DNA of 63,894 nt, filler included, from Dirinaria sp. TL-2023a (taxonomy: Eukaryota): assembly GCA_051941275.1 (NCBI GenBank). It is 22 parts of 22 records of this genome, joined end to end, with 100 filler letters (N's around TTAATTAATTAA, not from the genome) between each part and the next. Parts side by side here need not be neighbours in the genome. Positions count along the whole stretch, not along the records: positions 2,970 to 5,838 come from JAVEBF010002180.1; 21 more parts are not named here. One strand, given 5' to 3'. Of this stretch, positions 1,654 to 6,439 are shown piece by piece. The first letter of the stretch is position 1, and each line of letters begins with the position of its first letter. The translations under genes and the position numbers were made by a program. Under the pieces are notes generated by a model. It did not search any database. It saw only the letters and a list, made by a program, of their open reading frames with translations, and was not told where the DNA came from.

Positions 1654-3078
1654 TGGGACACGTTTTGACTGCTGTTGTTCAAATCTTAATTGGCCTTGCA
1701 GGCGCGGCTTCGTAGAACGTTGCAGCCGTGATTCTGTCTAGTGGTGGGAAGATTTTGAAAGTACAATCCACAGAGACGTGCCAGAATTACGGTAAGATGA
1801 AGAGTATTGTGAAGCTCAAGGCGAGAGCGACAGAGTCGCAAAAGGAAAGAAGGCTGTAGAGCGGGGCGAGCGAAGTGTCATGATCCTTCGTGGCACAGCG
1901 CAGAGACTAGCGTTGATATCGAAGAATGCGAGAGTGGTTGAGGCTGAGACGGTTGCTGTTAATTGGTGAATAGTTCGGTATCAACCACTGGCGCTCCTCA
2001 GCCTTGCACCATGTGCGGCCGAAGCATTCTTGGCGCGGTAGGAGCTTCTCTAGCTTCGAATCCTTCAAGTAAGAGCAATATTAAATGCAAAGATTTTCTC
2101 CCTCGAACACCGGCAAGCATCGTTGGTCCAGAGATCCCGGTTCTGTTGTTGCTCTGTTCCGCGATGATAAAAGATGTAAAGATGTATAGAGAGACTGGAA
2201 TAGGAAAATTATAAGTGTAGGTGGAAAGGGTGAGAACGACGCCACCAACTTCCGTTGGCCAATTGCAGTGCAGTGCAATCACAGCCCGATGGATCGACAT
2301 GTGTCCCGTGTCGGTTGCCAAGTCAAAGATAATCAAAGATTTGGTTTCGGGCATCAGTATTCCTTGGCCGCTCACATGCTGCTGTTCTTTCCCCTTCTCT
2401 GAACAATCCTGCAGTAAATAGTCGTTCAAATGTAAGAGTTAGAAACTCACCACCACTAAGAAATTGCCAAGATACTTTGACAAAAGCGGTTAGACTGTAA
2501 TTTAGTCAGCAGACTCCGGGTATTTAGTGCCCACAAAAGTTCTTCCTTTAGTTTTTAGGCAATTGCATACCAATACACACACAATTGGGTTCAATTCACC
2601 TCCCAAACACCTAAATCTGACATCAAACAAAAAGCTCAGACGTGCCGTCGAGGACTACACAAGGAGCGAAGCTGCGCTGCGATGATCAAATCATGGTAGC
2701 TGTTGAATAGGAGAGAAGAAAGGGTAGCAAGATTGAAATTGAAGGGAGCGGTGATCGTACGTCAATGATTGTCCGTTCTGGAGCCATGACTGCTCCACTG
2801 TCATGAGTTTCGTCTGAGAAGAAGACAAAGTATTTTCACGCCTCGTAGCCTTAGAGCTAGTTCTGTTCANNNNNNNNNNNNNNNNNNNNNNNNNNNNNNN
2901 NNNNNNNNNNNNNTTAATTAATTAANNNNNNNNNNNNNNNNNNNNNNNNNNNNNNNNNNNNNNNNNNNNAAAGGTGTATTCTAGAGCGGTGGTCAGTACT
3001 GCAACCATCACGTGGGTAGTCAGTCTGGCATTATATATAGGTCTCGCATGGGCCCTTAAATGGGTGTCAAATCGAGTA

Positions 3079-3115
<37 letters not shown>

Positions 3116-3273
3116 TTTTTTAAAATTTTTAATTCGAAAAACGAACTAATTCTTTTATGTGTATATCAATCTCTTGAAAGTAGTTCTCGCCGTCAACATG
3201 AAAAAACTACCCACATTTCTGTTCAAAATTCACTCGCGTCTTCAGATCTCTTTGCACTTGACCTATAAAAAAT

Positions 3274-4050
3274 ATGAAAGATGGTAGCTCGAGCTTCGGG
3301 CTCGCAAACCCAGATCTTCTCGAAAAGATTGATAGGCTTTTCGTCTGCAACGCGGGATATTGTGTAGATCTCCCACAGCTGATTGTGGTTGACGATCAAT
3401 CAAGTGGCAAAAGCTCGATCTTAAAAGCACTGACCAATCTTCCATTCCCTCGAGAGAGCGATCTGTGTACAAGATTTGCAACTCAGATCATCTTTCGACG
3501 ATCTTACGAGACACACGGATCGGTGTCAGTGATGCCGATCGAGAATGCAACCGAGGAACACAAAGCAGACTGTCGCACTTAGACCACGAATGAGTTTCAA
3601 TCATTAGACGTGGACTCATTTGCCAAGATCACGAAACAGGTATGTCAGCTCTTTGAGATCCTCTCACTGTAACGAATCGACCAGGTGAATGTTCTGATGA
3701 GCATTACGTCGGATGAGCCTGGCCTGAAGAGTACATTCTCCAAAAAGGTCTTACGACTTGAGATCACCAGTCTTAACGAAGAGCATCTGAGCGTTATCGA
3801 TGTCCCTGGTATCTTCAAGACAATTACGTCGGGGGTGACGATCGAGGCAGATATGGAAATGGTGGAGAGTATGGTCTATAACTACATGAAGAACCCCCAA
3901 TGTGTAATGCTGACCGTGTACCGGTAAATGTCGACATTGCTACGCAAGAGATCCTCGAAAAAGCGGAAGATGTGGATCGGGAGGGGACAAGGACTTTGGA
4001 AGTTCTCACAAAGCCAGTCTTAGTCGACCCAGGCGCGGAGAAAAGTAGCT
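3274..4050 (+). pseudogene. Dynamin-family (Mx/Vps1-like) GTPase N-terminal pseudogene
   Basis: LPQLIVVDDQSSGKSS (G1 with G->D), LCTRFAT (G2), IDVPG (G3), VLTKPV (G4). There is a premature TAG at 3580-3582 and a frameshift near 3920, and no stalk region follows. Confidence 0.85.
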
Positions 4051-4852
4051 CTGATCGCACATCAATCTTCACTTGTTTGGTGCTTCCTTCGAGTGCTTTT
4101 CACCAGTCAGGATTTTCGTTTCAGAAGGAATGATCTTTTGACTCTCGCTAAACACACACGCTCTCTTTTTGGTTTCGCATTTTTCTTCTTTTCTTCCCAC
4201 TTTTACATGATTGAGAACTTATTTTCTTTCGACTCATTCGCACTTGAAATGACGTGCACTGTCAGGACCCCTCCTGGGAGCGCGGGCCAGATTGGAAAGG
4301 TTTAACAACTAGGGAGCCTTGACGAATTTATCAAACCAGGTCCCCGACCTGGCTGCCTATCCTACTGCATATATATGCCCGTAACAAGAGCTCAAAAATT
4401 TTGTAAATTGTCTTTTCTTCCACTCCTGTTCCAAACATCCCATGAAACGCGGATATCGTTACCCATCTCAGGCGCTTATAGTCCGGGGTTCATGCGCTGC
4501 GGCTATAGTCCAGACAAGGATTGTGCTTCCGCAGAAAACGTTTCATCAACGGTAGCTAGATACGGAGTACTTCGTACGAATGATCGCCTGGTAACGATTT
4601 GACTAATTTATCTCTTTCTATTGATGCGCCGTCATTCACGCCGTGTTTGAGAGAACCCTCAAATGACGCATACGCACTAATCCTGCCGGGAAATTGGTTA
4701 CCGTAGTTCTGAAACAGAATCTGGCAAGTCTTCGAGTGCATATATGTATTTCGTGTCCCCGTTTTGAAAGGTTGTTGGGAACGAAAGAACACGTGCGCTG
4801 GTTCTGGCAAGCATAAATCAAGTATCGCCGAACGGATTGCTGAGTGTTCGAT

Positions 4853-5466
4853 ATGAAGTGTAATACCGTAAGCATGAAATACTCCTCCCCAAAGCTTAAC
4901 AAACAGCTGAATTATGCACAGACATTAGTAAAAGGCGCGCTTTCCGCCCAAGCAGCGCTCACTCAACAACCATCTGTTCGTCCCCTAGCCCTTCCCTCAT
5001 CCATAACCCCCAGCGAATGTCACTAAGCGCAGGACTGATCTTCTAGTCCAACCTCCCCACACAAGCCAAATGCTGGTCAATCGCCTACTCTCCCTCTTCC
5101 ATCACCGCTGCCGCCACGCAAGCCAAGAACCTCCCCCTCGGCTCCATCCAAGGCTTCCCCATGCCCTACCCGCTCTCAAACCTCCACTTCCCAGCCTGGG
5201 ATAATAACGGCGGCCCTTTCCCCTCCAGCGGCGCTCCCTTCGCACCAGGGTGCGATACGAGCGATATGAAGAAATTTCCGCTCGTGCCGCCGGTCCTGGC
5301 GGGCGCGAATGGAGCGTGGGATGGGACTAAGGATCGGAGTAGTGTTGTTGATGGGGGGAGTACGCAGAGTGATTTTGTGTTTGTGGATGGGGCGGGAAGG
5401 TTTTGTCTTATTGCGACGGAGACGCCGTATGGGGTTCAGGGGTGGTTGCCGTGTTGGTGGCAGTGA
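4853..5466 (+). CDS. Small secreted RNase T1/U2-like protein, predicted catalytically inactive (3 exons: 4853-4867, 4922-4975, 5047-5466; 162 aa)
   Basis: Introns GTAAGC..CAG and GTTCGT..TAG are both phase 0 and join an open frame: MKCNT/TLVKGALSAQAALTQQPS/SNLPTQAKCWSIAYSPSSITAA...GFPMPY...GCDTSDMKKFPLV...SDFVFVDGAGRFCLIATE...WLPCWWQ. Motif order matches the fungal guanyl-specific RNase fold. Confidence 0.6.
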
Positions 5467-6439
5467 GTGATGCATTGTAGGGGGAAGTGTGAATGTGTCC
5501 AGGGTGAAGAAGACTGCTTGGTTGATGTTGCATGGAAGATTTAATGAGATCGCCACCATGGATGATCTCGCTGCTCGTACGAGCATAGCAGTAACGCTTA
5601 ATTGAATGATAAAAGAAGGAGCCTTTCTAGCCGACACCTGAGCTCACTCTACGAGCACTTACTGTGGTCACTTGTAATGGCCCCGATATCGATTCTGTTA
5701 CTTGTGAGACTTGAGATCGAACTCCGCTTATCGACGACTGCGTCTCAGCAATCTGCTCGCTCAAAAGATCTCCTGACTTCTTCACACAGCCAGGAGAGAA
5801 GGGCGCAACGTGGTGCGCAGGTGTAAGTAACGCATCTCNNNNNNNNNNNNNNNNNNNNNNNNNNNNNNNNNNNNNNNNNNNNTTAATTAATTAANNNNNN
5901 NNNNNNNNNNNNNNNNNNNNNNNNNNNNNNNNNNNNNNGAAGACGTTTCTTCATCACAAGAGCTCACGTCAGCGTGGGCTCTTCGTCGTCGGAGCACTGA
6001 AGACATGACACATCTCAAACTCGAACAGGAACGTGGCATTCTTGAAACGAAAGATGAGACAAAAGTTGAAGATTCGGAGCACTTCTCATTCAAGGTGGCA
6101 AAATGACTATCGAAGAGAGCAGCTATTTCACAAACTTCTCTCATGCTGTCACAGAAGGTGATCGAGCCACCTGACAGGATGAGCGACATAGACTAAATAG
6201 TTTGTGACTAGTATGAATCTTACTAAGACTCCACACAAGTAGAAGCACGAAAATATAACATTCTCATGAACATTGTATAATGGAGTCATATGGCGTGAGG
6301 TTTTTCAGTTGACAGTCTTTGGGTAGGCTTTTCAGTTAGTGAAGGCCTATACGGCAAATGCTCAGCAGCTCTAATGAATGAAAGACAAGATGAAGAATAG
6401 CACAGTAACTTCAAGACGTCAGCACACCAAAATAAGTTT

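Follow-up and report, generated by a model that had tools for sequence, protein, structure and literature searches.

We analysed a 63,894-nucleotide (nt) stretch of DNA from the lichen fungus Dirinaria sp. TL-2023a (assembly GCA_051941275.1), referred to below as the window, and characterized a small gene at positions 4853–5466. Its spliced coding sequence (CDS) of 489 nt specifies a protein of 162 amino acids, in which a weak signal-like leader precedes a single domain that is predicted to have the fold of the ribonuclease (RNase) T1 family, and in which the residues that catalyze RNA cleavage in that family appear to have been replaced.

Transcript evidence came from RNA contigs of four runs (X1–X4), all made on one lichen metatranscriptome sample of a single study. 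The contigs share about 98% identity with the window and derive from a close relative, another strain; they show that the spliced form exists and say nothing on its abundance. The X3 contig matches 4634–4867, continues at 4922–4975 and resumes at 5047–5602. Of the four runs, X1, X2 and X3 contain the joint 4975→5047, and X3 also contains the joint 4867→4922; in X1 and X2, a loose end of 20 letters preceding 4922 reads as exon 1 apart from two mismatches, in agreement with the joint 4867→4922. The X4 contig is limited to 5336–5591. From 5047 onward the RNA contigs are colinear with the DNA as far as 5602 or 5635, with no intron inside the domain. The GT..AG ends of the introns assign the transcript to the plus strand. 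Translation would begin at 4853, where the first in-frame ATG lies, and an in-frame TGA precedes it at 4841–4843. The gene is expressed, and the model of three exons, two phase-0 introns and a 162-residue product, which an initial annotation had read from the DNA, is right to the base (Table 1).

Table 1 Features of the gene and its transcript, in window coordinates
Feature	Position	Strand	Basis
5′ untranslated region (UTR), minimum extent, at least 219 nt	4634..4852	+	X3 RNA contig, colinear over 4634–4867
Upstream open reading frame (uORF), 5 codons, in the transcribed 5′ leader	4663–4680	+	Sequence
uORF, 7 codons, in the transcribed 5′ leader	4744–4767	+	Sequence
Exon 1, coding part, 5 codons (M K C N T)	4853..4867	+	Spliced to 4922 in X3; loose ends in X1 and X2
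Intron 1, 54 nt, GT..AG (GTAAGC..CAG), phase 0	4868..4921	+	RNA joint 4867→4922
Exon 2, 18 codons, remainder of the weak signal-like N-terminus	4922..4975	+	X1, X2 and X3 contigs, 0 differences
Intron 2, 71 nt, GT..AG (GTTCGT..TAG), phase 0	4976..5046	+	RNA joint 4975→5047
Exon 3, coding part, 139 codons and stop, entire predicted RNase T1-fold domain	5047..5466	+	Open reading frame (ORF), RNA, AlphaFold2 model
RNase T1-like domain (predicted), exon-3 ORF residues 4–138	5056..5460	+	VIA alignment span, HMMER to He1 and Po1
3′ UTR, to the limit of the RNA contigs	5467..5635	+	RNA contig ends at 5591–5635

Predicted fold and catalytic positions

We modelled the exon-3 protein with AlphaFold2 (AF2) from an input alignment of eight sequences; domain residues are numbered along the exon-3 ORF throughout. 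The best model had a mean predicted local distance difference test score (pLDDT) of 79.5 and a predicted template modelling score of 0.80, and its secondary structure elements, assigned by DSSP, follow the order of the T1 fold: an N-terminal hairpin, a long helix and then antiparallel strands. When the model was compared with the Protein Data Bank (PDB) by Foldseek, the listed ranks 1–45 were all occupied by T1-family RNases (He1, U2, F1, T1, Po1 and Ms; best E 2.7e-3, probability 1.00), followed by restrictocin, AVRPM2, BEC1054, AVRA22 and alpha-sarcin. Re-alignment with VIA-align gave Z 12.8 for RNase F1 (100 residues at 2.2 Å) and Z 12.5–11.4 for Ms, U2, Po1, He1 and T1, with the RALPH effectors of powdery mildews at 8.7–9.2 and the first unrelated chain at 3.0. 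A second structural search, which made no use of Foldseek and covered 48,161 representative chains, returned F1 (Z 12.8), U2 (12.4), AVRA22 (9.4), restrictocin (9.3), BEC1054 (8.7), hirsutellin A (8.1), AVRA13 (6.6), AVRA7 (5.5), AVRA6 (5.1) and RNase Sa (4.2). These ten top chains are exclusively microbial RNases or RNase-like effectors, and everything below them scored 3.3 or less.

Searches that did not use the model led to the same family. With the single sequence, all three PDB sequence matches at E ≤ 10 were T1-family chains, namely Po1 (3who, E 0.043) and He1 (7w05, E 0.061; 5gy6, E 0.17); with the family profile, both matches at E ≤ 10 were again of the T1 family, He1 being found twice, in two colinear segments. 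In the ESM Atlas, the nearest cluster was 'Ribonuclease clavin' (score 0.93, 216 of 256 features shared), 71% of whose members carry PF00545. For a prediction, the RNase T1 fold is established, at Z 12–12.8 to T1-family RNases on the predicted model; this is the fold that the initial annotation had proposed, with AlphaFold and Foldseek named as the check.

According to the available text of Takebe et al. 2024 (PMC11487538), the catalytic residues His40, Glu58, Arg77 and His92 of RNase T1 correspond to His36, Glu54, Arg72 and His87 of Po1, and a further catalytic residue, Tyr38, to Po1 Tyr34; Po1 has disulfides 9–99 and 48–82, and its Pro56 lies two residues past Glu54. HMMER alignments placed Met39 of our domain opposite He1 His34 (T1 His40), Phe110 opposite Po1 Arg72 and He1 Arg71 (T1 Arg77), and Glu125 opposite Po1 His87 and He1 His86 (T1 His92). 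Phe37, which is Phe in most family members, stood opposite He1 Tyr32 (T1 Tyr38). We infer that Lys76 is the equivalent of T1 Glu58, since the model strand 75–79 takes the place of beta-4 and Pro78 follows Lys76 as Pro56 follows Glu54 in Po1. The replacement of all four catalytic positions, as initially annotated, is borne out by alignment at His40, Arg77 and His92 and through this model-based assignment at Glu58; the motifs quoted in its support are all present in the translation.

We then counted the residues at these sites over 22 family sequences, taking for each column those that cover it. The Glu58 column has Lys in 19 of 20 sequences, the exception being the frame-shifted model P0012; the Arg77 column has Phe in 19 of 20 (exception, P0008), and the His92 column has Glu in 20 of 21 (exception, P0013, whose C-terminus is off-frame). 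At the His40 column, the 16 sequences divide without exception into Met (12), Trp (2) and Tyr (2). The enzyme's residue is absent at all four positions in every member. These replacements are conserved across the family, and are therefore fixed family features and not random decay. The tyrosine equivalent to T1 Tyr42 is kept in all 16 covering sequences, and the domain's single histidine, His48, is occupied by other residues in the relatives.

Two conserved insertions, one of about 19 residues following beta-3 and the other of about 15 following beta-4, make the domain some 35 residues longer than the T1 RNases. Its cysteines are Cys9, Cys69, Cys120 and Cys136. Cys9, Cys120 and Cys136 align to He1 Cys7, Cys81 and Cys98, and Cys120 and Cys136 also to Po1 Cys82 and Cys99, so that the terminal cysteines are kept, as initially proposed; Cys69 lies in the loop corresponding to that of Po1 Cys48, the partner of Cys82. 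The pattern matches two of the three Po1 disulfides, the end-to-end pair included; the corresponding bonds of this protein are putative. The domain is acidic, with a calculated isoelectric point (pI) of 4.98 and seven Lys and Arg against nine Asp and Glu.

Relatives, distribution and the leader

A word-indexed protein search yielded six proteins at E ≤ 0.01 (22 candidates), an exhaustive phmmer search of 1.84 billion representatives nine at E ≤ 0.001 (best E 8e-53), and a profile search 11 at E ≤ 0.1 (4,690 candidates). P0010, an 880-residue repeat protein with 15 matched stretches, was removed as a low-complexity match. Together with cluster members, the family comprises 20 database proteins, to which one relative on four metagenome contigs (L001–L004) is added. 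Identity within the family is 47–83%, and P0002 is 82% identical to the window protein. A tblastn search of the 63.9-kb window with the spliced protein found no second copy.

Eight of the 20 database proteins carry a species name, and all eight come from lichen fungi, a lineage other than the powdery mildews, as the initial annotation had it. Seven are from Ikaeria, cf. Caloplaca, two Teloschistes, Xanthomendoza, Villophora and Wetmoreana. The lineages of Ikaeria and Wetmoreana were checked and are Teloschistaceae, to which we take cf. Caloplaca, Teloschistes, Xanthomendoza and Villophora to belong as well; the eighth source is Physcia stellaris (Physciaceae, Caliciales). Each named relative is annotated 'hypothetical protein'. 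Among the named sources of these protein searches there was no match outside lichen fungi, and no Erysiphales protein was among the matches of the word-indexed, phmmer and profile searches. The profile search did not find a canonical RNase even at E ≤ 0.1. In the Pfam searches, PF11786 matched two members at E 0.022, which we took as noise.

The metagenome relative (L001 3777–4429, and likewise in L002–L004) has 53% protein identity and an intact domain ORF. In all four of its contigs, which differ from one another at 0–6 positions, codon 4 of the would-be leader exon is an in-frame TGA, and there is no GT..AG intron that would connect this exon with the domain ORF in the same frame. These contigs have no dynamin-like neighbour, such as the one described below for the window, and no nucleotide similarity to the flanks of the gene's contig. 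Some database models look decayed or mis-modelled: P0008 lacks Phe110 and Cys120, P0012 contains a frame shift, and the C-termini of P0013 and P0021 bear no relation to the family.

At closer range, X1 differs from the window at 4 of 420 nt in the exon-3 coding part and at 6 of 156 nt in the 3′ UTR (5467–5622), and the segment 4634–4867 differs from that of the RNA relative by 11 substitutions and four gaps in 234 nt. The difference is lower in the exon-3 coding part than in either of the other segments, so that conservation is higher in the CDS than on either side of it. Over all runs, six CDS differences were found, two synonymous and four residue-changing (5129 in X3 only), all at positions that vary within the family.

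To compare leaders, we took the best eight-residue Kyte–Doolittle mean as their hydropathy. The window leader reaches 1.31, with Lys9 in the middle of its core and a longest apolar run of five residues. Nine of the 20 database models extend to the N-terminal cysteine, and six of these nine begin with a classical hydrophobic leader (P0006, P0007, P0009, P0014, P0020 and P0021; hydropathy 2.29–2.80, apolar runs of 10–11). P0003 and P0005, which start just before the domain, are probably truncated models, and the start of P0013 is aberrant. P0014, from the cluster of P0002, has a leader with a 10-residue apolar run, and the window leader has no such run; compared by eye, it looks two residues shorter than that of P0014 and seems to carry several polar replacements. 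The weak leader is not an assembly error, since exon 2 of the RNA relative is identical to that of the window (0 differences). The signal-like N-terminus initially noted is thus present, and it is weak by comparison with those of the six relatives. Because these relatives carry clear signal peptides, the family would appear to have been secreted ancestrally; the export of the window copy is uncertain.

Interpretation and comparison with known systems

Taken together, we read the locus as a real, expressed gene for a descendant of a T1-type RNase that has turned non-catalytic and would act by binding a partner, in a family that was ancestrally secreted; we give this joint reading a probability of roughly 0.72. 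In the mechanism that we propose, the ancestor of the domain would have been a secreted T1-type RNase, in which RNA cleavage by the T1 mechanism would have been lost through Met, Trp or Tyr, a putative Lys, Phe and Glu at the catalytic positions, with Phe or, less often, Tyr at the helper position Tyr38. Because the new residues and the two insertions are kept across the family, the old phosphate-binding active-site cleft may well have been rebuilt as an apolar pocket, which would be closed by a Lys–Glu pair. The protein would then work by partner binding and not by catalysis, and the leader of the window copy would have lost its hydrophobicity. The lack of activity, the binding role and the secretion are inferred, whereas the gene model, its expression, the predicted fold, the substitutions and the restricted distribution are observed.

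Several observations weigh against this reading. Pfam assigned no family to the 162-residue product at E ≤ 10, and PF00545 matches none of 13 family members, even at that threshold. The fold is a prediction from an eight-sequence alignment with no Foldseek match at E ≤ 0.001, and sequence kinship with T1 is marginal (E 0.04–0.29). The correspondence of Glu58 to Lys76 is in no tool alignment, and a PDB search with residues 63–91 gave no match. Several relatives look decayed, and the family may be dispensable, easily gained and lost. The close comparison, in which four of six CDS differences change the residue, does not show strong purifying selection; six differences are too few for an estimate, and L001, at 53% protein identity, is too diverged for one. 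The leader of the window copy speaks against efficient secretion.

Of the alternatives, the one that we take most seriously, although we lean against it, is that the window copy is not secreted: its leader would have decayed and its product would be cytoplasmic, where a disulfide-dependent fold may not form, so that the gene is being lost or has an intracellular role. The contrast of its leader with those of the six relatives speaks for this, as do the 10-residue apolar run that P0014 has kept, the same exon 2 in the RNA relative and the damage at the 5′ end elsewhere in the family, in the form of the TGA at leader codon 4 in L001–L004. On the other hand, the window domain retains all four cysteines and all family-invariant residues, its transcript exists in properly spliced form, and the positive MK start is preserved along with a pattern of small residues before QQ, as after the P0014 leader. 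Weak leaders can still be exported. A different objection, that the T1 resemblance arose from modelling or by chance and that the protein has another fold, strikes us as scarcely credible. The alignment was shallow (eight sequences), the five AF2 models span pLDDT 57.9–79.5, the Foldseek E-values were 1e-3 to 1e-1 and Pfam gave no match. Against this, three lines of evidence are independent of the model: the PDB sequence search returned T1-family chains alone, in two colinear segments, the protein-language-model neighbour was a PF00545 cluster, and the cysteines align to those of Po1 and He1, which are disulfide-bonded in Po1. The structural Z of 12.8, moreover, exceeds that of the best unrelated chain by 9 units.

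The remaining alternatives accept the fold and concern its use. The protein could be a non-catalytic RNA-binding protein, as was proposed for BEC1054; it would then occupy an RNA such as the sarcin–ricin loop of ribosomal RNA and protect or block it without cutting. The retained T1 fold, the Tyr42 equivalent present in 16 of 16 sequences and BEC1054 (6fmb) as a structural neighbour at Z 8.7 would suit such a role; we nevertheless consider it improbable, given that the phosphate-contacting positions are all apolar or charge-reversed, that the domain is acidic (pI 4.98) and that, in the available text of Cao et al. 2023 (PMC10410722), five RALPHs have no higher affinity for RNA than proteins unrelated to them. 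We hold it to be more improbable still that the protein is a ribonuclease that works with non-canonical residues, for instance Lys76, Glu125 and Arg97. These three are nearly invariant, and some RALPHs of dicot powdery mildews are described, in the text available to us, as keeping a competent RNase domain (10.64898/2026.08.13.744637), so that a protein of RNase-like form need not be inactive. Against this, the only histidine, His48, is not conserved, the two general acid/base residues and the two transition-state stabilisers have all been replaced, and a long insertion interrupts the guanine-recognition loop.

We compared the protein, read as a non-catalytic T1-type descendant, with the systems nearest to it. 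The T1-family RNases (T1, F1, Ms, U2, Po1 and He1; PF00545) share its predicted alpha+beta fold over 99–106 of 100–114 residues at 2.2–2.7 Å and are its sole sequence-level PDB matches, with He1 and Po1 closest by sequence and cysteine pattern. They also resemble it in their small size, in the secretion leader that its relatives carry, and in the N-to-C cysteine pair and the pair like Cys48–Cys82 of Po1. They differ from this family at the four catalytic positions and from most of its members at Tyr38; the two conserved insertions set this family apart, the PF00545 profile misses it, and the third Po1 disulfide (7–84) is absent from it. The ribotoxins (restrictocin, alpha-sarcin and hirsutellin A) have the same superfold, at Z 8.1–9.3. 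They are active enzymes with a His/Glu/His set, larger and basic, and are secreted by ascomycetes. By contrast, the domain described here lacks these His/Glu/His residues, is acidic and has one non-conserved histidine.

The RALPHs (BEC1054/CSEP0064, AVRA6/7/10/13/22 and AVRPM2) likewise have an RNase-like fold without catalytic residues, end-to-end cysteines, a small size and a leader, which in this family is found in the relatives. Both groups are lineage-restricted and belong to fungi that live closely associated with a photosynthetic organism. The structural match to RALPHs is weaker, however (Z 5.1–9.4, compared with 12–12.8 for true RNases), and our protein searches found no sequence relatedness. 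The available text of Cao et al. 2023 (PMC10410722) describes an intron in the beta3–beta4 loop that is shared by RALPHs, RNase F1, Zt6, Fg12 and SRE1. This intron is absent here, where the domain lies wholly in exon 3 and both introns precede it. RALPHs are expanded and diversified, whereas this family is small and well conserved, and RALPHs belong to fungi with mildew-type haustoria, which a lichen fungus does not have. Because the beta3–beta4 loop intron is absent, the protein is not a RALPH member; it is a RALPH analogue in the sense of a dead RNase scaffold. The description 'RALPH-like' in the initial annotation therefore holds as an analogy and not as kinship, the shared intron being absent and the model nearer to true RNases.

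The system closest in setting comes from Xanthoria parietina (Teloschistaceae), in whose predicted secretome a 'ribonuclease' structural cluster appears among the putative effectors and is the only cluster without a thallus-upregulated member, according to the available text (10.1101/2024.08.16.608140). The likeness lies in the lichen mycobiont and the secreted ribonuclease fold; as available, that text is silent on catalytic residues and on whether this family belongs to the cluster. The main text of a Peltigera pangenome preprint mentions neither ribonuclease nor RALPH. Among the papers that our literature searches listed, judged by title and abstract, none described a catalytically dead T1-fold family in lichens, and the X. 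parietina cluster was the one related mention.

Among the effectors of powdery mildews, catalytically dead RNase-fold proteins form the dominant class, whose origin is debated. In the family described here, a T1-type RNase seems to have been turned into a pseudoenzyme a second time and independently. This case is set apart from that of the mildews by its occurrence in mutualistic lichen fungi, its own fixed replacement residues, its two conserved insertions and another intron layout, and would allow a natural comparison of how the scaffold is used once catalysis is gone. A bolder proposal, which we put forward as unlikely but not negligible, is that lichen fungi of the Teloschistales and Caliciales independently made a secreted T1 RNase into a conserved, non-catalytic binding effector of the symbiosis, which would act at the interface of fungus and alga as the counterpart, in a mutualist, of the RALPHs, and that the leader is being lost in some lineages, this one included. 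The initial annotation had suggested an effector possibly acting on a host or photobiont. If so, the loss of the leader would point to a shifted site of action or to gene turnover driven by the partner. To our knowledge, lichen biology has almost no characterised effectors, and it gains here a candidate that is small, is expressed and should be easy to produce. The family is also unannotated ('hypothetical protein', without a Pfam match), and defining it would improve the annotation of lichen genomes.

The contig around the gene

The window is made up of 22 short contigs of falling length (about 2.9 kb each), which 21 spacers of N44-TTAATTAATTAA-N44 separate from one another. Since features on different contigs are not genomic neighbours, the usable context of the gene is the 2.9-kb contig 2970–5838. 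Parts of this contig, such as 4122–4313 and 5658–5838, are without RNA cover. Upstream of the gene's 5′ UTR, 4396–4604 is matched by a single 212-nt RNA contig, from run X1 only and with 11 differences, and there is no obvious gene at this place.

Farther upstream, 3262–3924 on the plus strand encodes a dynamin-family GTPase in two pieces in one frame (PF00350, E 5.9e-8 and 5.3e-7), split by a stop at 3580–3582. RNA contigs of a relative about 95% identical cover the region 3172–4078; they skip 3637–3681, which is 45 nt long with GT..AG ends, and have a gap of 28 nt at 3816. The dynamin-family gene looks broken or mis-assembled, though it is transcribed in the relative.

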